In this document: positions 1,000-53,379 of the stretch, one piece after another
How positions within the stretch are numbered: position 1 is the first letter of the stretch
How the letters are laid out: each line of letters opens with the position of its first letter
Assembly: GCA_030667525.1 (NCBI GenBank)
Contig: DAOUVS010000001.1
Location: 1-56,400 of the forward strand
Direction of reading: 5' to 3'
Length of the DNA: 56,400 bases
DNA from: Candidatus Zixiibacteriota bacterium
GTDB lineage: Bacteria; Zixibacteria; MSB-5A5; GN15; PGXB01
Notes under the pieces: generated by a model
The model's database searches: none
Told to the model about the DNA's origin: nothing
The model's input: the letters and a program-made list of their open reading frames with translations, nothing else
Translations under genes and position numbers: made by a program

Positions 1000-1585
1000 T
1001 TATTTGAGTCGTGCATTCCCATATTTAATATTTTTTGTCACTTTTATTTATGGCCCGGCCGGATTATAGCCATAATGTTAAATTTTGAAGAACCAAAATA
1101 ATAATTATTATTGCAATATTTTTAGTTTATGAAGGGTATTTATTATAGGGTTGGCTGTTTTGGGGGAAACATAAAAAACGGTACAAAAAATAAGAAAGTA
1201 TTTCCTCTTCGCTAACTTCTTACCTGTGCAAGCGAATTATTGCGATGATACTTATGTTTTATGGTCATATGCCGACAATAATTTTAATGATACTGTATAG
1301 AAAATGAGCAAAAATATGGAAATTTATAAATTCAAATATATTTGTTTTTTATTGACAAGATATTTACAAATTTCTACTTTTTAAATGTAAGGTAACATAG
1401 GATGTAAATGACATGACAATATGTCAAAGCAATGGATATGCTTTTATGGGTCGGTTTTTTATTCAATTAATTAAAGATAATAATATATCTAATTAAACAT
1501 CTAATAAACACCCGATGGGTGAAAGGAGGATTTTACAAAATATTAGAATAGTTTATTAACCATTAACCAATGGAGGGTATGAAAA

Positions 1586-4468: not shown

Positions 4469-7400
4469 ATGAAAATAGGAAAAACACTTTTTATTATCTC
4501 GGTACTGGTATGCGCTTATTCGCTGGCGTTGGCTTTGCCGCCTGGGCATGTTGAGTCGGGAATGAACGCATCCAAGCCGGGACAAGCAATGACATTGGAC
4601 ACCAGGACAATGATCAATGTTAATAATCTGCAAATGTTTTGCACCAATATTGGTGGTTTTGCGGAAGACATTTCGGTTATGCTGGAAACAGGCAAAGCCG
4701 ACGGGCTTTATTTCCCAGCCGGCACAGACAGATCTGTTCTGTATTCCGGCGGTGTCTGGATTGGCGGAATAGTTGATGGTGATATTAGAGTTGCCATTGG
4801 GGCCTTTGACGCCCCCGAATATTGGCCAGGACCAGCCGATGATGATGGCGGTGTCCAGGCTGATAATGCCAGTTATAAGATATATAAAATCAATAGTAAC
4901 GCCGATTTTTGGAACAACCCGGTAAAAGCCGGCATTAATATGGCCGATGGAACCCCATATTTGAGAGTTGATTCGGCCCAGCATGTTGATGATTATACTA
5001 ATTGGCCGGTGACTGATGGCGCACCATTGGACGACGATGGTAATCCATTACTGCTTGGAGATCAAACGCTTTGGGCAGTGTTTAATGACGGCGGCTCGCA
5101 TGCTTATGATGGTTATGGCGGCGCCACAGATTCCCTGGGCGTTGAAGTGCATGCGTCTTATTTTGGGTTCAATCGTACCGGTGCTCTGGGAAATACGATC
5201 TACATGAAGTTTATGTTTATCAATAAATCACCAGATATTATCGATTCATTTTATGTGTCACTTTGGGCCGATCCAGATCTTGGTGGAGCATCCGATGACT
5301 TGGTTGGATGCGATACTGTCAGATCGCTCGGATTCTGTTACAATGCGACAAACAGTGATAATACCTATGGTAAGACGCCGCCAGCAGTTGGATATGACTT
5401 TTTGCAGGGACCTATTATTCGCGAAAGCGATAATGATCCCATATATGCAACACACGATTTTTCTGCTGATACGGCTTTCCTGAATACAGGAGATACAATT
5501 CCGCAGGCGTTTATTATGGGTCTTACATCATTCAACAAATATATCAATGGTACCGACCCGGATGAGCCGGAAGAATCATATGGATATATGCGTGGTAATG
5601 ACTCCAAGGGTGGCGAAGGTGGCGATCCTGATACCCCGCCGACAAATCCTCAAACAGGGGAACTGACCCGATTCTATCACCCGGGTGACCCTGTTAAAGG
5701 AACCGGCTGGCTGGATGATACGCCTGCTGACCGCCGGTATATGTGTAATACCGGTCCGTTTACCTTTAAGCCCGATGACACTCAGGTAGTTGTTGCTGCT
5801 GTGGTTGTTGGACAGGGTGCTGATAGAAAAACATCGGTGTTGGTGTTAAAGGCTTATGATGATATAGCTCAGTTCGCCTATGACATGAATTTTGATATTC
5901 CGCCACCACCGCCACAACCAATAGTTACTGCCACAGCTCTTGATAGAAAAATAGTTCTTTCCTGGACCGACAAATCGGAGTTGGAATATGAATCATCAAC
6001 TCACGACTTTGAAGGCTATGTTGTTTATCAAGGTGAAACCATAGCCGGTCCGTGGAAAGAGGCAGCTGTTTTTGATGTAAACGACGGTGAAGCTCTGTTG
6101 TTTGATGATGTCATTGATCCAGACTTTGGAGTTCCCGTATTTCAGCCGGTGGTAACCGGAACAGATGCCGGTGTACAGCATTATATAGAAATTGATGAAG
6201 ATTATGTTTTGGGTGGACCATTGCATAATGGCCGGAGCTATTATTATTGCGTTACTGCCTATTCTTATCCGGTTGGTAGGGCAGAGTCGGTAGCCAAAGG
6301 TTTAAGAGTGCTTAATGGTGCCCCATCGGCTGTAACAGCTATAACGATTGTCCCGATGGACGATCTTCTGGGCAGCGATTGGGAAACTGCGGCAGTAGAT
6401 GACGAAGATGCGGACTATTCCAGAATATCTGATCTTTTGCCGCCAACGACAAACTTCGTAACTGTTGAAGAAATCGACCCAATGTATGTCACGGGTCATG
6501 ATTATGAAGTCAGATTCGCTGCTATTTATCCAGATACGATAATTGATACGGTAACCGCTAGCCCTCTTGATACAGATACTACTTTATCATATAGGGATAC
6601 GACCGATCTATGGCAGGATGGTGCACAGGTTGATATTTTCCAATACTGGGAACTATTTGATGTTACCACTGACCCGGATACTAAACTTCTTGAAAAACAA
6701 TGGAATTTATCGGGCGATGGTAATTACAATGTTGTTGATGGTATTAAGGTAACAGTGATCGGAAATCATGTTCCTGGTTTGGCTGGCTTCAGTTATCTGG
6801 ATAATAATACCGACTATGCAGGTCGGGCAATTAGCTATGTTAATGCGGGCCTTGCGTTTTTTGGTGGCGGCACCGATTACGGAATTAATTTCTGGGGTGG
6901 TTACCTTGATCCGGAAACAATGCCAGATTCATTTTTTACCGTCGAATTGGTTTATACAGATGATATCCCATTGGCTGACCCGAGTAATGTGAGTGGACAG
7001 CGTGCGTATAATTATTGTCGCGGCTGCGATCCCAATTATGGTTATCAGGGATATTTCCAGGTTCCATTTGAAGCTTATGACATGACCGACGCTGACAATC
7101 CGCGTCAGGTTAATGTCTGTTTTGTGGAATCGAATGTCTCTGCCGTCTATGATTCGACATGGAATCCCGATGAATCGGATTTAGGCGGAAGAGAATATAT
7201 CTTTATTATGAAAACTGATTATGATGGTGACGATGAAGCGGATGCCGGCACCGGATCTATAGATTACACAACTGAAGACTTCTATGATGGCGGCACTTTT
7301 GACTTTGTTTATGCCGGTTGGTTTAGACATCGCCCGGTCGCAACTGAAGGTGATCCAACAAGAATCATTGATGACGGCGATGCTCTTCAATGGCTGTGGG

Positions 7401-10767: not shown

Positions 10768-12135
10768 TTGAGAAGAATGTCTTGGCATAGTTTTTGGGTA
10801 GAAATGATGAATCTGAAACCTGAGCAGCAAATACGTCCCGTTCAGCGACTGACCAGACCCTTTCGGCGTTTCATTCATTTGGAAGCCTCCGGCGGGATGG
10901 TTCTTCTTGGTTGCACTATTGTTGCACTATTGATTGCCAACTCTCCTTTTGCTTCATCATATCATGCGTTTTGGAACCAATTGCTGAGTTTTACTTTGGG
11001 TGAATCTAGGATATCTTATCCATTGTGGTATTGGGTGAACGATGGCCTAATGGTTATCTTTTTCTTCGTAATTGGTTTGGAATTGAAGCGTGAACTTACG
11101 ACTGGGGAGCTTAGTGAAAAGCGTAAAATTATCTTACCCGCCGCAGCTGCAATAGGCGGAGCCATTATACCAGCAATCATCTTTCTGGTACTACAACAGG
11201 GCGAACCGTCACAGTCCGGCTGGGCCATACCAATGGCAACTGATATTGCCTTTGTTGTCGGCGTTCTGAGTCTATTGAGTAAACGGGTTCCGCATAGTCT
11301 CAAGATATTCCTTCTATCTGTGGCTATAGTCGATGATCTTCTGGCAGTTTCAGTTATTGCTATATTCTTTACCGAGACCATAAACTTCATGTGGCTTGCA
11401 ATGTCTGTATGTGGATTCGGCGTGATTGTGCTTATGAATAAATTGGGCATAAGAATGATTGCAATTTATGTATTGGTTGGATGTGCGCTATGGCTATTTA
11501 CCCTCAAATCAGGAATTCATCCTACCATCGCCGGAGTAATCCTGGGTTTGATGACACCGGCGACCAGTTTATTGGACAGGAAATCAGCGAGAGACGCGCT
11601 GGAATCGCTTAGATTAGAATTCTCTAAGAACGATCAGAATGGCATAAATAAAGCTGACGTTGGTATGTCCGATGTAGTTCAATTCACGGTGAGAGAATCA
11701 ATTTCTCCTCTTGAACGTCTTGAAACAGCTCTTCATCCGTGGGTAGTATTTGTCATTATGCCCCTTTTTGCTCTGGCCAACGCTGCCGTTTCACTTGACA
11801 TATCCAGTCTTGGGGCGTCATTATCGATTGCCGTCATACTTGGATTAGTAATTGGTAAACCTTTAGGAATTCTTCTGACCTCATATTTAGTTATTACAGT
11901 TGGTTGGACAAAGCTACCTGAAAATGTGAGTTGGTTAACGATGATTGGAGCTGGGCTACTTGCCGGCATAGGTTTTACAATGTCATTATTTATTGCATCA
12001 CTTGCTCTTGAAGGGAACCTTTTGGAAATTGCAAAGGGAGGAGTACTTATTGGATCTGGTATAAGCATGCTTCTGGGATTAGGTTTCTTGTTGATATCTC
12101 TAAGGAGAAGAGGGTCCAAATCATATAATGTATAG
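10768..12135 (+). CDS. nhaA: Na+/H+ antiporter NhaA
   Basis: Multi-TM protein with the NhaA signature WVNDGLMVIFFFVIGLELKREL and AIPMATDIAF. The track start at 10768 is TTG; the true start may be the ATG at 10777 or at 10804/10807. Confidence 0.9.
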   Translation: MRRMSWHSFWVEMMNLKPEQQIRPVQRLTRPFRRFIHLEASGGMVLLGCTIVALLIANSPFASSYHAFWNQLLSFTLGESRISYPLWYWVNDGLMVIFFFVIGLELKRELTTGELSEKRKIILPAAAAIGGAIIPAIIFLVLQQGEPSQSGWAIPMATDIAFVVGVLSLLSKRVPHSLKIFLLSVAIVDDLLAVSVIAIFFTETINFMWLAMSVCGFGVIVLMNKLGIRMIAIYVLVGCALWLFTLKSGIHPTIAGVILGLMTPATSLLDRKSARDALESLRLEFSKNDQNGINKADVGMSDVVQFTVRESISPLERLETALHPWVVFVIMPLFALANAAVSLDISSLGASLSIAVILGLVIGKPLGILLTSYLVITVGWTKLPENVSWLTMIGAGLLAGIGFTMSLFIASLALEGNLLEIAKGGVLIGSGISMLLGLGFLLISLRRRGSKSYNV

Positions 12136-12574
12136 TTTTATAAATATTGGCGGTTTTGTTTGTCGAAATTGTGTCTGAGGTGGTGACCGCCGCCGAAGTA
12201 GTAAATACAATTCTGAAGATGAATAATATTGATAGATGATTTCAGGGTAACATGCTGTCAGGTCACACCCTCAATTCTTTCGGCCAAGACCTGACAGAAC
12301 TATATATCCAATAAAATGATAATTCCTTGTAACTTTATCACCTCCATGTAATTACAGCAAAATGGGTTCCCTCCAGAGGCGGACAGGCGTTTTGTCATAT
12401 TTCTATTTTTCACGACAATTTCGTTTAACAAAATGGCTTCGTTTCGTCAGGAAAAAGTTTTTTATCTACCAGCCTTCCTGCAAATTGCAATTTATATTTT
12501 TGTATCATTGACATCATAATTAAGGAAAGCGGGATGAATCAACGGTGATTTGATAGTGAATTTGTTTTGATAGC

Positions 12575-12610
12575 CCCCTCGGGCAGATGTGGACATCTGC
12601 CGCGCACAAA
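12575..12610. repeat. GC-rich hairpin element, copy 1
   Basis: ccctcgGGCAGATGtggaCATCTGCCgcgcacaaa: an 8-bp perfect stem (12582-12589 / 12594-12601) with a 4-nt loop. Confidence 0.85.
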
Positions 12611-12866
12611 TCACCTCCATGTAATTACGGCAAAATGGGTTCCCTCCAGAGGCGGACAGGCGTTTTGTCATATTTCTATTTTTCACGACAATTTCGTTTA
12701 ACAAAATGGCTTTCCTCCTTTGAAGGACAAGCGTTTCGTCAGGAAAAAGTTTTTTATCTACCAGCCTTCTTGCAAATTGTAATTTATGTTTATGTATCAT
12801 TGACATCATAATTATGTAAAGCGGGATGAATCAACGGTGATTCGATGGTGAATTTGTTTTGATAGC

Positions 12867-12902
12867 CCCCTCGGGCAGATGAGGACATCTGCCGCGCACA
12901 AA
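12867..12902. repeat. GC-rich hairpin element, copy 2
   Basis: ccctcgGGCAGATGaggaCATCTGCCgcgcacaaa: the same stem as copy 1, with one loop base different. Confidence 0.85.
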
Positions 12903-12923
12903 TGGGTAATCCAAAAAAGTTAC

Positions 12924-12956
12924 GCCGGGGCAGACGAGGCGTCTGCCGCCCACAGA
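12924..12956. repeat. GC-rich hairpin element, copy 3
   Basis: gccggGGCAGACGaggCGTCTGCCgcccacaga. The stem differs from copies 1/2 at a paired position on both arms (AT/AT becomes AC/GT), so pairing is kept. Confidence 0.8.
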
Positions 12957-13044
12957 TTTCGACCGCTCCGAATCAGGTTTTATATGGACATAGATACATA
13001 TGTTGCTATCTTGTATATTGATATATAATAACATAATAAAGGAA

Positions 13045-13073
13045 GGGGCAGACGAGGCCTGCCGCCCACGAAA
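13045..13073. repeat. GC-rich hairpin element, copy 4 (degenerate), abutting the start codon of the next gene
   Basis: ggGGCAGacgaggcCTGCCgcccacgaa. It matches copy 3 except for a 2-nt deletion in the 3' arm. It ends 3 nt before the ATG at 13076. Confidence 0.7.
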
Positions 13074-13075
13074 TT

Positions 13076-14203
13076 ATGTCCAAATTGATAACACCAATAA
13101 AAATGGCAATTGAAGCTGAAGCGCGGGTTTTTAGCGACAATAATTTTAGGTATTCTGCATTATTTGAAAAATCATGTTTCGATTATTTCAATAATAATTA
13201 TATGGACCATGAAAATATCAATACATGTTTTATAGAAATGGGCGTTTTCTGGCATAGATTTGATGGTCTTATTATTCGTCCGTATCCTTATCAGCGGGTT
13301 TCAAGAGCGCTCCAAGGAATAATAAATATTGCTGAAAAATGGGAATTAATTAATCCAGGGAAAAGGCTCCATAAGGGAACACCATATTATTTTTATGGAG
13401 TGATTTGTATTTTGCAGGGCGATATAGATCAAGGTCTATTATCAATGCACCAAGCATATAGGGAAGATATTTTATCAAATTTTACTGATATAAACAAACC
13501 TGCACGATCCTTTATATCATTAAATGTTGATAATAAATATCAATTCTTTCGTCAAAAAGTTGTTGAAGTTACTGATTTTTTGGAGGAATTGCTGAAAAAT
13601 TACTGCAAATATAATAGTTCAAAATTCTCATTAAGCAGTTTAAGGAAATGTTTTCTTGATAATTCACTGTATAATAATGAAGCATATTATTTTATTTATT
13701 GCCTATTTAAAATTCAGAAACTCATTAAACATGTTAATGCAAATATCCGCAAAAATGAATTGGCATCATACATTGAAACATCTTCAATTTTTGAGTTATG
13801 CAAATTATCAGAGGTCTTGGTTAGGAAAATTTATAAAGATGAAGAGAGTAGGTGTGGGTATAATCTTGGCAAAAAGCCAAGCTTTACTCATTTTTTAGAA
13901 TGCTTTTGCAGGGATGATCAAATAAAATTAAATTTAACGCAAAAAATTCTTACCGATACAAATAATAATAAGTTTAATCAAGACCTAGACAAAACAATAT
14001 CCTCACTATTGAATAATGACTTGTCAATTAAAATAGGTTCTTCAAAATTACAGCCAATTGAATGTTCAATCTTATTGGCATATTGCCTCAGAAATTTTGG
14101 GGGCCATAAAATTGAAGATCAAAAAGTAATATATCAAAATTTTGACTCGATTATGGAATCTCTTTTCTATACAATTTTCTTTATAATCGAAAAGAAGTTA
14201 TAA
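13076..14203 (+). CDS. Orphan AT-rich protein with C-terminal RNxxxH (HEPN-like) motif; possible abortive-infection/toxin RNase
   Basis: 375-aa ORF with no recognisable SD. Composition is very AT-rich: my hand counts of two 60-nt lines gave 23/60 and 11/60 G+C, against 28/60 in a line of the next gene. The motif LRNFGGHKIED at residues ~330-340 fits the HEPN Rx4-6H signature. Nothing else is recognisable. Confidence 0.6.
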   Translation: MSKLITPIKMAIEAEARVFSDNNFRYSALFEKSCFDYFNNNYMDHENINTCFIEMGVFWHRFDGLIIRPYPYQRVSRALQGIINIAEKWELINPGKRLHKGTPYYFYGVICILQGDIDQGLLSMHQAYREDILSNFTDINKPARSFISLNVDNKYQFFRQKVVEVTDFLEELLKNYCKYNSSKFSLSSLRKCFLDNSLYNNEAYYFIYCLFKIQKLIKHVNANIRKNELASYIETSSIFELCKLSEVLVRKIYKDEESRCGYNLGKKPSFTHFLECFCRDDQIKLNLTQKILTDTNNNKFNQDLDKTISSLLNNDLSIKIGSSKLQPIECSILLAYCLRNFGGHKIEDQKVIYQNFDSIMESLFYTIFFIIEKKL

Positions 14204-50256: not shown

Positions 50257-53200
50257 ATGAATCGATTATTATCGTTTATTATTGTTGGCTTTTTGGTGAT
50301 GTCCGTGTCAGCTTTCGGTACAGATTATTATGTGGCAGTCGATGGTGATGATACCGGTGGAAGCGGCGCCATTGATAGTCCTTTTGCCTCCATTCAGCAT
50401 GGATTAGATATTGCCAGCTATGGCGATTCTATTTATGTCGGACCCGGAGTTTATTTTGAAAATATAGATTTCTTAGGCAAAACTGTTTTAGTTAAATCAT
50501 TAAATGGCGCGGGGGAGACTTTCATTGAACCTGTGATTCCGACCAACCCGATATTGAGTTTTATTAGTGGTGAAGATAATGCCACAATCATTGATGGTTT
50601 TACATTGAGGAATACAACCGATGCGCCTGGTATAATTTGTGATGCTTCAGGACCGAAAATTCAAAATTGTTTTGTTTACGACTGCACAACTTCGGGCAAT
50701 GGCGGCGGAATTCTCTGTCTCAATGGTGCCGATCCGACTATTAGAAGCAACCGTTTTGATAACAATAGCGCTTCGTTTGGCGGTGCGATTTATTTTGAAA
50801 ACAGTAATCCGGTTATTACTGAAAATATATTTATGAGTAACAGCGCCGTAGTTGGTGGAGCAATAGCATTTAACACCAGACTATTCCATACATTCTCATA
50901 TAATCTATTTGCTTATAATGAATCATCTCAAAATGGCGGCGCTATTGCTAACAATTCAACCTTTGGACCGACCTTAACTGTCAGCTATTGTACCTTCTAT
51001 CAAAATCAAACAGATGGATATGGTGGTGCTATTTATATCGATGGCACTATTCTGGTCGTCGAAAAATCTATCCTATGGGAAGATATTGCAGTTATTGATG
51101 GAAATGAAATCTATAGGAATTCATCCGCCCCGATTTTTGTCTCATACTGTAATATCAGTGGTGGATGGACCGGCAGCGGTTCCGGCAACTCAGATGTCGA
51201 TCCGGAATTCTGCGATGTCGCAAACGAAGATTTTCACCTGCAGGAGATCTCATTTCTGTCCGCTTATTCTTACAATAGCGGCGATCCGATTGGAGCCTTT
51301 GGGGCAGGATGTTTAATTATTGAATGTGATGATTTTGATGCCGATGGAATTTGTGATGAGGTAGATAACTGCCCTGCGATAGCAAACGCTGACCAGTCTG
51401 ATACAGATGGTGATGGATTTGGTGATGTTTGCGATAATTGCCCTGCGATAGCGAACGCCGATCAGATTGATACTGATGGTGACGGATTCGGTGACTTGTG
51501 TGATAACTGTCCCGATATAGCGAATGCCGATCAGGTTGATACTGATGCCGATGGTATCGGTGACTTGTGTGATAACTGTCCTGAGATAGCTAACGTTGAT
51601 CAGGCTGATGCTGATGGTGATGGCTTCGGTGACTTGTGTGATAACTGTCCTGATATCGCTAACGCTGATCAGATTGATACCGATGGTGACGGCTCCGGCG
51701 ACTTATGCGATAACTGTCCTGAGATAGCTAATGCTGATCAGGCTGATTCCGATGGTGATGGATTTGGTGATGTTTGCGACAACTGTCCTGATATCGCGAA
51801 CGCGGATCAGGCTGATACCGACGGTGATGGATTCGGTGACCTGTGCGATAACTGTCCTGCGATAGCGAACGCCGATCAGCTTGATTCCGATGGTGACGGA
51901 TTTGGTGACGACTGCGATAACTGTCCTGAGATAGCGAACGCCGATCAGCTTGATTCCGATGGCGACGGATTTGGCGACAACTGCGATAACTGTCCTGATA
52001 TAGCTAATGCTGATCAGTCTGATTCCGATGCTGACGGTTTCGGTGACTTATGCGATAACTGTCCTGATATAGCGAATGCCGATCAGCTTGATTCCGATGG
52101 TGATGGATTTGGTGATGTTTGCGACAACTGTCCTGATATCGCGAACGCCGATCAGACTGATGCCGACAGTGATGGTTTCGGTGACTTATGCGACAACTGT
52201 CCTGAGATAGCTAACGCCGATCAGGTTGATGCCGACGGTGATGGCATAGGGGATGCTTGTACTATTACCGAATATGGTTCAATTATTGGTTATATCACCA
52301 ACGAAACAGGTGCTGTATTGGGTGTCTTTGTTGATTTGCTGGGCTCTGAGGACAATTTGATTGCTTCTGCTGAATCTGATAATGAAGGGTTCTATCAATT
52401 TTTGGACCTCCCGTACGGAATCTATCAGGTATCGGTAACTGCTCCGGCTGGTTATACCGCTGATTTGGCACAAAAAGAAGCAGAGGTCAACGGCGCGGCG
52501 GTCCATATCGATTTCCATCTGACAGAAGTTACTACTTCTGGAATGTGGCGCGGTCGCGGATATTGGATGCATCAGGTAAAATGTCTAATTCGTGGACGTG
52601 GTCATCTTCATGAATCGTTCGAACAGATGTGTAATTATCTGGAGCAAATATATACATATTTCAACTCCAACCCTGAACATCCTGTGGGAGCTTTCACAGT
52701 CGATCCTGATGCGACTTGTATTGAGCGATTAATAAGTCTGTTTGATGTTCTCCGACCGCATCATAGGAATAAAATGCTTCATCGGGCACAAAGTAGTTTT
52801 GCCATTCTTTTGCTGAATCTGGTTTCCGGTAAAATATCGCAGGATGCAAATGTTAATGATGGCGCTTCATTTGTATCTTCCGGTGAAAGCAGTTTGTCAG
52901 GATCATCATCGTTTGATATTACCGTGGCCCAGGCGATTGTTTACAGCGATAGATTATTAACTGATGGCGACGACAGCAATGACGAATTGGTTTATCTGAT
53001 TGATAGCTTGATTATTGCAGGTGAACCGATTCCGTCCGGTTTAATTGATCCTTCGACGCCAAATATTGATTTTATTCCGGCACTTGATGTTGGTGAAGAC
53101 GAGTATTCAGCTTTGCCGACCGGTTTTTCGCTTGAGCAGAATTATCCTAATCCATTTAATCCGGTGACCGAGATAAAGTTTAGTTTGCCGACTGCCACTG

Positions 53201-53379
53201 ATTGGTTAATAACGATTTATAATATCTCAGGTCAGACCGTGAAACAATTCGAAGGTTTTGGCGAAACCGGAGTTATTTCGGTCAAATGGGATGCTTCCGA
53301 ACAGGCATCGGGAATTTATATGTATAAGGCACAAACTTCAACGTTCGCAGAGACGAAGAAGATGGTGCTTTTGAAATAG
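50257..53379 (+). CDS. Secreted multidomain surface protein: right-handed beta-helix + 13 thrombospondin type-3 Ca-binding repeats + CarboxypepD_reg-like domain + T9SS C-terminal sorting domain
   Basis: The track frame starts at a TTG at 50242. I prefer the ATG at 50257 after AAAGGAG. It has a signal peptide. The N-terminus reads DYYVAVDGDDTGGSG...SPFASIQHGLD (DUF1565/pectate-lyase-like). There are 13 DNCPxIANADQxDxDGDGFGDxC repeats. The C-terminus reads NYPNPFNPVTEIKFSLP...GIYMYKAQTS...KKMVLLK. Confidence 0.85.
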   Translation: MNRLLSFIIVGFLVMSVSAFGTDYYVAVDGDDTGGSGAIDSPFASIQHGLDIASYGDSIYVGPGVYFENIDFLGKTVLVKSLNGAGETFIEPVIPTNPILSFISGEDNATIIDGFTLRNTTDAPGIICDASGPKIQNCFVYDCTTSGNGGGILCLNGADPTIRSNRFDNNSASFGGAIYFENSNPVITENIFMSNSAVVGGAIAFNTRLFHTFSYNLFAYNESSQNGGAIANNSTFGPTLTVSYCTFYQNQTDGYGGAIYIDGTILVVEKSILWEDIAVIDGNEIYRNSSAPIFVSYCNISGGWTGSGSGNSDVDPEFCDVANEDFHLQEISFLSAYSYNSGDPIGAFGAGCLIIECDDFDADGICDEVDNCPAIANADQSDTDGDGFGDVCDNCPAIANADQIDTDGDGFGDLCDNCPDIANADQVDTDADGIGDLCDNCPEIANVDQADADGDGFGDLCDNCPDIANADQIDTDGDGSGDLCDNCPEIANADQADSDGDGFGDVCDNCPDIANADQADTDGDGFGDLCDNCPAIANADQLDSDGDGFGDDCDNCPEIANADQLDSDGDGFGDNCDNCPDIANADQSDSDADGFGDLCDNCPDIANADQLDSDGDGFGDVCDNCPDIANADQTDADSDGFGDLCDNCPEIANADQVDADGDGIGDACTITEYGSIIGYITNETGAVLGVFVDLLGSEDNLIASAESDNEGFYQFLDLPYGIYQVSVTAPAGYTADLAQKEAEVNGAAVHIDFHLTEVTTSGMWRGRGYWMHQVKCLIRGRGHLHESFEQMCNYLEQIYTYFNSNPEHPVGAFTVDPDATCIERLISLFDVLRPHHRNKMLHRAQSSFAILLLNLVSGKISQDANVNDGASFVSSGESSLSGSSSFDITVAQAIVYSDRLLTDGDDSNDELVYLIDSLIIAGEPIPSGLIDPSTPNIDFIPALDVGEDEYSALPTGFSLEQNYPNPFNPVTEIKFSLPTATDWLITIYNISGQTVKQFEGFGETGVISVKWDASEQASGIYMYKAQTSTFAETKKMVLLK
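51364..52260 (+). repeat. 13 tandem 69-bp (23-codon) coding repeats (TSP3 repeats)
   Basis: Near-identical units begin gataactg(c/t)cctg(c/a)(g/t)ata(g/t)c... Variation is mostly at codon third positions and at 3-4 variable residues per unit. Confidence 0.9.

Follow-up and report, generated by a model that had tools for sequence, protein, structure and literature searches.

The RNA antitoxins of known type III toxin-antitoxin systems consist of repeats of ~34-45 nt, and a model of the abiF motif is held in Rfam. Repetitive extragenic palindromic (REP) elements are GC-rich imperfect palindromes of 20-40 nt in which an unpaired head, for example GT[AG]G, is conserved. Their classes are usually species- or genus-specific, and a GTG[GC] head ahead of an 8-bp stem makes the kind of element spread by Y1 transposases of the REP-associated tyrosine transposase (RAYT) type. 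In C. difficile, AbiF, an Abi_2 HEPN protein, is neutralized by an upstream non-coding RNA that carries two abiF motifs, and this AbiF/RCd22 precedent needs both the Abi_2 protein and the abiF-motif RNA (PMC12373285). HEPN domains are marked by an Rx4-6H motif with a polar residue (N, D or H) after the arginine, situated where helix 3 ends, and further by an acidic Ex3[KR] motif in helix 2 and by frequent helical inserts between helices 2 and 3 (PMC3710099). REPs with a GTGG head have been listed by Nunvar et al. (PMC2817692). Here we describe a locus in a 56,400-nt stretch (the window) of contig DAOUVS010000001.1 from a Candidatus Zixiibacteriota bacterium, in which a 375-aa gene follows a duplicated non-coding unit and four hairpin repeats on the same strand. 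An initial annotation had read gene and repeats as a possible HEPN toxin with its RNA antitoxin, or as a module of the abortive infection (Abi) type. Our analysis points to a predicted HEPN gene that stands next to unrelated, lineage-typical repeats, an explanation that, with its parts taken jointly, we consider probable.

A large protein family with a predicted HEPN domain

The gene in question is the following:

13076-14203, + strand: 375-aa gene; N-terminal domain, residues 1 to ~185; C-terminal HEPN-like domain, residues ~186-375

Its very high AT content, already remarked on in the initial annotation, is evident from a GC content of 0.29, where the window as a whole has 0.41 and the genes on either side have 0.43-0.46. 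The gene caller places the start at M10; 13076 is the better start, since residues 1-9 have counterparts at the N-terminal ends of homologues in the alignment. The gene had been called an orphan, a description that does not survive comparison with other genomes. A word-indexed search returned 15 relatives at ~40% identity, and a HMMER scan with an alignment of these relatives reached at least 969 representative clusters at E <= 0.001, with 339 at E <= 1e-30; most members are 355-390 aa long and match from end to end. No Pfam family and no PADLOC-DB 2.0 family matched the window protein at E <= 10, searches with up to 114 relatives against Pfam, PADLOC and NCBIfam gave nothing meaningful beyond weak TPR_2 noise, and sequence-profile searches of the PDB with the family found nothing. 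By sequence comparison, then, the gene is a member of a large family that has no name in Pfam, NCBIfam or PADLOC.

Conservation was assessed in an alignment (A4) of 114 diverse members, down to ~20% identity, in which the columns of G101, D131, R339 and H344 are invariant. The N-terminal domain (13076-13630, residues 1-185) contains the near-invariant residues W89-E90, H99-K100-G101, Y105, G120, H125, A127, E130-D131 and P142, which include the motifs HKGTPYYF and MHQAxEED, and it matches no known family. The domain might serve either as a sensor or as a second site of catalysis. Two conserved motifs of the C-terminal domain bear on its identity:

14090-14107, + strand: codons of R339-N-F-G-G-H344, the predicted Rx4H catalytic motif, placed from alignment A4 and the AlphaFold model
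13811-13825, + strand: codons of E246-V-L-V-R250, an [ED]x3[KR] motif in predicted helix 2, placed from alignment A4

The LRNFGGH near the C-terminus, on which the HEPN call of the initial annotation was built, contains an RNxxxH motif with the family consensus YGxRNxxAH: R339 is found in 114/114 members, N340 in 113/114 and H344 in 114/114. At position 246, 58 of the 114 members have E and 55 have D (113 together); at position 250, K is found in 51 members and R in 28 (79 together). AlphaFold predicted the full-length protein with a predicted local distance difference test score (pLDDT) of 86 and the C-terminal domain, residues 185-375, with a pLDDT of 93 and a predicted template-modelling score (pTM) of 0.90. 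The model of the latter comprises helices 197-219 and 228-252 (which contains E246), a three-helix insert at 270-312, and helices 327-342 and 356-374; helix 327-342 ends at R339/N340, with H344 in the loop that follows, and this layout matches the published one for HEPN domains (PMC3710099). When the C-terminal domain was compared with the PDB by Foldseek, HepT ranked first (7bxo_D/G; also 6m6u and 6m6w), with template-modelling (TM) scores of 0.65-0.70 normalized to the target, root-mean-square deviations of ~3.6-4.4 Å and probabilities of 0.90-0.95, and HI0074 (1jog) was also among the matches. The first match in the BFVD database was a phage HEPN protein. The E-values of the top HEPN matches are weak, ~0.5-1, so that the fold comparison supports the assignment without deciding it.

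Those E-values (~0.5-9 over the Foldseek matches) count against the assignment, as does the outcome of the full-length Foldseek search of the PDB, which gave only low-TM matches of TPR-like and Fic-like type, the HEPN resemblance emerging only with the model of the separate domain, and no Pfam, NCBIfam or PDB sequence profile ties the family to a named HEPN family. An hhalign comparison with three RNxxxH/HEPN proteins encoded near family genes gave probabilities of <1%. Weighing alignment and model together, we hold that the family very probably carries a C-terminal HEPN domain. Its active site appears to be complete (R339, N340, H344 and the acidic residue of helix 2), which predicts a metal-independent RNase.

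Upstream hairpins as dispersed REP-like elements

The series of four hairpins described by the initial annotation is present, with the form GGCAGAYG-loop-CRTCTGCC-GCSCAC and with all copies on the + strand:

12581-12610, + strand: REP-like palindrome copy 1, stem 12582-12601; GGCAGATG-TGGA-CATCTGCC followed by GCGCACAAA
12873-12902, + strand: REP-like palindrome copy 2, stem 12874-12893; loop AGGA; within the second copy of the non-coding unit
12927-12956, + strand: REP-like palindrome copy 3, stem 12929-12947; GGCAGACG-AGG-CGTCTGCC followed by GCCCACAGA
12975-13040, + strand: AT-rich stretch in which promoter-like hexamers were placed, by consensus match only, at 12985 and 12991
13045-13072, + strand: REP-like palindrome copy 4, degenerate, stem 13047-13063; between the Shine-Dalgarno (SD)-like AAGGAAG and the ATG

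Each of the four hairpins is followed directly by GCGCAC or GCCCAC. In copy 3 the stem has C-G at one pair where copies 1 and 2 have T-A, a compensatory change. Copy 4 is two bases short in its 3' arm; its RAA tail runs to 13072 and stops 3 nt ahead of the ATG at 13076. Read on the minus strand, the element shows GTGGGC or GTGCGC, after which come the 8-bp stem, a loop of 3-4 nt and the second arm of the stem; the GTGC head found in copies 1 and 2 does not conform to GT[AG]G. A pattern of hairpin plus tail, which finds two of the copies, had 0.00 matches in shuffled sequences, and the tail pattern, which finds all four, had 0.74 matches, with four reached by 1 of 100 shuffles. Spacing from copy to copy is irregular (292, 55 and 118 nt). 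The AT-rich stretch is likely the promoter region of the HEPN gene, and the AAGGAAG that precedes copy 4 may serve as its SD sequence.

The reach of the element became apparent from a scan of one genome per species with the pattern GGCAGAYGN{4,7}CTGCCGCSCAC, which matched at least 120 stretches. Among the 133 matches listed, at least 95 are true palindromes at no fewer than 82 loci with unrelated flanks, and 79 of the 95 lie outside open reading frames (ORFs) of >=120 aa. Their source is overwhelmingly metagenome-assembled genomes (MAGs) that bear the labels Zixibacteria, Ignavibacteria, Calditrichaeota or FCB group, or else just unclassified "bacterium"; within a MAG, several contigs carry copies. 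The 38 non-palindromic matches of the 133 are mostly chance matches inside genes of unrelated high-GC bacteria, a class to which our filter also assigned the few copies mismatched at the seventh stem pair. That pair is C-G in 72 of the listed palindromes and T-A in 23, and both variants also occur in the window. Stretches of 26 nt identical to window copy 1 were found at unrelated loci, and the listed loci include clusters in direct orientation (L039, L099, L029) as well as inverted pairs (L046). On this evidence the upstream hairpins are generic dispersed REP-like elements, part of the lineage-typical intergenic repeat material.

A possible source of their mobility was found at locus L078, which encodes a 173-aa Y1_Tnp protein (IS200-like, RAYT type; PF01797, E 5.7e-14) with this element ~100 nt upstream; this Y1 transposase is a candidate mobilizing enzyme for the REP group. 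At 1640-2309 of L078, the RAYT-type gene is preceded by a GTGG-headed element and by GTAGGGCAGAACC...GGTTCTGCC, and GTGGCAGAACC then stands at the contig end. At 540-700 of L063, a GGCAGACG element is accompanied by a REP of a second type, whose head is the classical GTAG (GTAGGTCAGGAGGCC...CCTCCTGAC, and its inverse ending in GACCTAC); the flanks of the dispersed copies often contain fragments of this GTAG-headed type. A near-identical element of 26-28 nt (GGGGCAGACGAGGRCGTCTGCCGCCCAC) is shared by dozens of MAGs, at species level, with the labels Zixibacteria, Ignavibacteria/-ales, Calditrichaeota and FCB group, and even Phycisphaerae.

Three other identities for the repeats were considered and, from sequence and spacing, rejected. 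Their irregular spacing speaks against a CRISPR array, the hairpin is too short for an integron attC site, and the lack of a matching left-end hairpin speaks against a miniature inverted-repeat transposable element of the IS200/IS605 type.

Relationship between the gene and the repeats

In the reading of the initial annotation, the upstream repeats would be transcribed and processed to a structured RNA that binds and neutralizes the HEPN toxin, in the manner of type III toxin-antitoxin systems or of AbiF/RCd22. The C. difficile precedent speaks for such an arrangement, and so do the position of the repeats directly upstream on the same strand and the compensatory change in the hairpin stem. 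Dispersal of the hairpin and repeat-free homologues, which the annotation itself had named as grounds for giving up its reading, are nevertheless both what we find. The loci listed with the hairpin, at least 82 and unrelated, have no family gene nearby, with the exception of L046, where the repeats lie 3' of the gene. No upstream repeats are present at the seven homologue loci L001, L003, L005, L007, L009, L166 and L168, nor at L046, and in L003, L009 and L166 the upstream gene overlaps the family gene or ends <50 nt away from it. Among the matches listed, L046 is the only REP-bearing locus with a family member; an inverted REP pair, one of GGCAGACG type and one of GGCAGGTCGGGAGCCCTGCC type, directly follows the stop codon there, and the 48-nt upstream gap contains no REP. 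The window copies, moreover, with the spacing given above, form no regular array of short repeats.

Searches for known RNA and protein partners point the same way. Rfam 15 had no match in the window at the gathering threshold, and at E <= 10 the region 12100-13120 gave only chance-level matches to unrelated families, with no abiF-motif RNA among them; ARAGORN likewise returned nothing. The protein has no Pfam match, hence belongs to neither Abi_2 nor a type III toxin family, and Abi_2 is not among the best 25 of the 57 Pfam families recorded for the 114 members (E <= 1). The ~280-nt unit upstream folds no better than shuffled sequences. Neither the AbiF-like nor the type III version of the module is supported, and we consider an RNA antitoxin at this locus very unlikely.

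Our preferred reading, to which the fair confidence expressed above applies as a whole, is that gene and upstream repeats are unrelated and adjacent by chance, the repeats being no cognate antitoxin. Certain observations sit uneasily with it. Within the 56.4-kb window the hairpin copies are confined to this locus, the element being absent from the other 55 kb of the contig, and its dispersal is shown in related genomes. The RAYT link is a single locus (L078), and the palindromes that directly flank its gene are of a sister type, GGCAGAACC. A near-identical hairpin across several phylum labels is unusual for REPs, which could point to another, constrained function or to unreliable binning labels.

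The duplicated non-coding unit

Between nhaA and the HEPN gene, as the initial annotation observed, a non-coding unit is duplicated in tandem. Its elements are as follows:

12321-12609, + strand: non-coding mosaic unit copy 1; duplicated part from ~12337, homology to the Zixibacteria L051 copy from 12321
12610-12901, + strand: non-coding mosaic unit copy 2, 292 bp, with a 19-nt insert at 12713-12731
12335-12347, + strand: TTATCACCTCCAT block at the 5' end of the unit; repeated at 12610-12620 minus the leading TT
12359-12411, + strand: hairpin T1, base CAAAATGG...CGTTTTGTC, variable apex, then a T-rich run; second copy 12632-12684
12430-12448, + strand: hairpin T2, a short form of the T1 motif; second copy 12703-12740 with a 19-nt apical insert
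12359-12396, 12430-12448, 12632-12669 and 12703-12740 of the window, 1321-1339 (-) of L124 and 6542-6576 (-) of L051: sites of the ACAAAATGG/CGTTTTGTCA motif

The 273- and 292-bp copies are 95% identical in a pairwise alignment with a single 19-nt indel (12713-12731 in copy 2), and their lengths differ because of this insert at the apex of T2. The indel divides the duplication into two direct repeats, D2 (12337-12439 and 12610-12712, 99%, 273 nt from start to start) and D1 (12440-12611 and 12732-12903, 95%, 292 nt from start to start). Each unit is made up of the TTATCACCTCCAT block, the two A/T-based hairpins T1 and T2, a less conserved AT-rich stretch and a REP at the end. T1 and T2 belong to a second small dispersed palindromic motif, consisting of ACAAAATGG, an insert of 0-20 nt and CGTTTTGTCA, usually with a T run after it; the short, T2-type form is present in L124 and L051 and stands alone in an Ignavibacteriales MAG. 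Because a T-rich run follows the hairpin and a T.G position pairs on the + strand RNA only, T1 looks like a + strand terminator. The other GC-rich hairpins of the window are ordinary terminators with T runs. From its composition we read the unit as a tandemly duplicated mosaic of small palindromic elements, similar to a bacterial interspersed mosaic element (BIME).

The unit might instead be an independent small-RNA gene, present as two tandem paralogues and unrelated to the HEPN gene. A Zixibacteria MAG (L051) contains a ~330-nt copy at ~76% identity in a different gene context (6282-6615, nhmmer E 2.8e-83), with a partial second copy 6 kb from the first; the TTATCACCTCCAT block is kept at the 5' end of the unit in three lineages (the window; L051, 6583-6595, - strand; L161, 2275-2287); and apical inserts in the hairpins are tolerated, all of which would suit such a gene. 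Its weakness is that no Rfam family matches, that folding of the whole unit shows no thermodynamic signal on either strand (no better than shuffles, z 0.08 and 0.32), and that there is no clear pair of promoter and terminator. In ~1.2 Mb of related DNA and one metagenome scan, no more than three independent contexts came to light, a number too small for an analysis of covariation. In that scan, the 5' block of the unit had 36 matches, nearly all by chance, with a single protein-coding stretch recurring in many; L161, whose unit locus is orthologous to that of L051, is the one true relative. We regard a small-RNA gene as unlikely.

A protein-coding unit was ruled out, as its 74-aa and 105-aa ORFs differ between the copies, being lost because the 19-nt indel is no multiple of three. 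A minus-strand mini-ORF (MEVIKL...) was also rejected, having no SD sequence and a variable length. The TTATCACCTCCAT block is similar to the anti-Shine-Dalgarno sequence, which forms the 3' end of 16S rRNA, and on the opposite strand it reads ATGGAGGTGATAA. A 19-nt inverted repeat, 84% complementary, connects the 3' flank of nhaA (12154-12172) with 12415-12433 and 12688-12706; it is not conserved in L051 and may be due to chance.

Genomic context and acquisition

The upstream neighbour of the islet formed by repeats and HEPN gene is:

10768-12135, + strand: nhaA-like Na+/H+ antiporter gene

In the syntenic relative L063, an FCB-group MAG whose gdhA is 72% identical at the DNA level, gdhA is followed after 80 nt by a homologue of the 986-aa gene that neighbours the locus in the window, without nhaA and without the islet. 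An exact look-up of the 986-aa protein found none on record. The closest relatives of the HEPN gene lie on contigs of 28-34% GC. The window gene was probably acquired horizontally, given its GC of 0.29 against 0.41-0.46, the low GC of its nearest relatives and the lack of the islet in L063. Some of the relatives, L009 among them, are probably archaeal, as the OapB/OapC families and an archaeal-type prokaryotic Argonaute (pAgo) partner suggest.

Horizontal origin raises the question of whether the gene is a silenced or decaying remnant of transfer that has no function in its host. Its solitary position among housekeeping genes and its strongly deviant GC would fit, as would the lack of a usable SD sequence beside the ATG, where REP copy 4 occupies the position. 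A remnant is quite unlikely, however, as the ORF is full length, with no frameshifts or internal stops, and keeps E90, H99, K100, G101, Y105, G120, H125, A127, E130 and D131 together with the whole set of C-terminal motifs.

The contexts of homologues make a role in defence or abortive infection plausible for the family. At 700-12800 of L009 (29% GC), the family gene is surrounded by a dense defence island, which in order comprises GmrSD, a short pAgo pair (Aga_REase_Archaea and pAgo_I), the family gene, HEPN_Swt1/PDC-M34B, QueC/TGT, a SMODS cyclic oligonucleotide-based antiphage signalling system (CBASS) and Cap17; of these neighbours, pAgo_I, Aga_REase_Archaea, PDC-M34B and TGT have PADLOC matches. 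A HEPN_AbiV gene and a 214-aa neighbour with an RNxxxH motif lie near the family gene in L001, a 446-aa neighbour with RNDIVH in L005, and a neighbour with a weak Pfam match to a Polbeta nucleotidyltransferase family in L166, and there is little recognizable around the family gene in L003, L007 and L168. No partner gene is conserved across the homologue loci. Two contexts argue the other way: in the window and in L046 the family gene stands among housekeeping genes, outside defence islands. In L046 (3380-4623), the genes on either side of the family member, a bacterial one with 29% identity, encode an iron-type alcohol dehydrogenase and a transporter.

Elsewhere in the window, a 1040-aa ORF (50257-53379) contains an internally repetitive coding stretch (51364-52203), with self-matches at several offsets and with ~65% identity to repeats in L039, L067 and L127. 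Its product is probably a repeat-domain surface protein.

Proposed mechanism

Based on the conserved motifs and the model, the C-terminal HEPN domain would be a latent metal-independent RNase. By analogy with single-gene HEPN/Abi effectors, the conserved N-terminal domain may hold this RNase inactive until it is triggered, for instance by phage infection, and the RNA cleavage then released would lead to cell arrest. The upstream repeats would act at most in cis. Up to four terminator-like hairpins, with the REPs in addition, might protect the gene against read-through from nhaA. REP copy 4, placed between the SD-like AAGGAAG and the ATG, may lower translation.

A form of this idea in which the generic repeats have been exapted, that is, co-opted to keep a toxic gene quiet, is compatible with our preferred explanation. 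T1/T2 and the REPs would stop or stall transcription from nhaA, and REP copy 4 would split the SD sequence from the AUG or occlude the start. T1 is indeed followed by its T-rich run on the + strand, and removal of REP copy 4 in silico gives AAGGAAG-AAATT-ATG, a normal SD spacing of ~6-7 nt such as the homologues L009 and L005 have. Effects of REPs on termination and mRNA stability are reported (PMC3733652). On the other side, a simple terminator scan called neither T1 and T2 nor the REPs on the + strand, copy 4 is degenerate and hence a weak hairpin, and the arrangement could be accidental. We regard exaptation as somewhat doubtful. At 13036-13078 of the window, a REP insertion may have uncoupled the SD sequence from the AUG of a toxin-like gene.

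More tentatively, and extending the sequence comparisons beyond this locus, we propose that the family may constitute an unrecognized single-gene Abi or defence effector, widespread (at least 969 clusters, in genomes among which are probable archaea) and travelling with pAgo, CBASS and GmrSD islands, in which a conserved N-terminal sensor, with G101 and D131 invariant, would gate the C-terminal HEPN RNase; in the window, the REP insertion would tune its translation.

Comparison with known systems

If the family described here is an active HEPN effector, a sizeable unnamed family joins the candidate anti-phage and toxin genes, and with it is defined a new N-terminal domain that may sense infection. 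The locus also serves as a caution for genome scans, in that hairpin repeats beside a toxin-like gene speak for an RNA antitoxin only if they accompany that gene from genome to genome; a single pattern scan exposed the hairpins as generic REP-like elements here. The breadth of a near-identical REP across FCB-group species may interest those who study the evolution of REPs and RAYTs.

A comparison of the 375-aa family with HEPN RNase toxins and Abi effectors (HepT of MNT-HEPN, AbiD/F (Abi_2), AbiJ, AbiU2, AbiV, Swt1-like proteins and Cas13/Csm6) shows many points of agreement. Like these, the family has RNxxAH where helix 3 ends, the arginine being followed by a polar residue, an acidic [ED]x3[KR] motif in helix 2 and a helical insert between helices 2 and 3. 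Its predicted all-alpha bundle is closest to HepT and HI0074, and some members lie in defence islands. Unlike the named HEPN families, however, it has no profile match in Pfam, NCBIfam or PADLOC, and it possesses a conserved N-terminal domain of ~185 aa, with HKGTPYYF and MHQAxEED. Also, unlike MNT-HEPN modules, it is not accompanied by a conserved partner gene such as the MNT antitoxin.

With AbiF/RCd22 and the type III systems (ToxIN, CptIN, TenpIN) the locus shares a putative RNase gene that comes after hairpin-forming non-coding repeats on the same strand. The window repeats differ in being generic, dispersed, irregularly spaced and not conserved with the gene. AbiF/RCd22 is set further apart by its RNA and its protein: Rfam reveals no abiF-motif RNA here, and the window protein is neither an Abi_2 protein nor a member of any other Pfam family.

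The repeats themselves compare best with the REP, BIME and REPIN (REP doublet forming a hairpin) elements associated with RAYTs, that is, with TnpA-REP transposases of the Y1 HUH type. The window element is likewise a GC-rich imperfect palindrome of 26-28 nt with an unpaired GTGG or GTGC head next to GC, present in many copies with unrelated flanks, mostly extragenic, and single or clustered, with an inverted pair in L046. A Y1_Tnp gene, a candidate RAYT, stands beside a copy in one genome (L078). Unlike the commonest REPs, the element has a GTG[GC] head rather than GTAG, and the four window copies are all in direct orientation. Also, unlike the usual REP classes, it is found with nearly the same sequence in MAGs labelled Zixibacteria, Ignavibacteria, Calditrichaeota and others.

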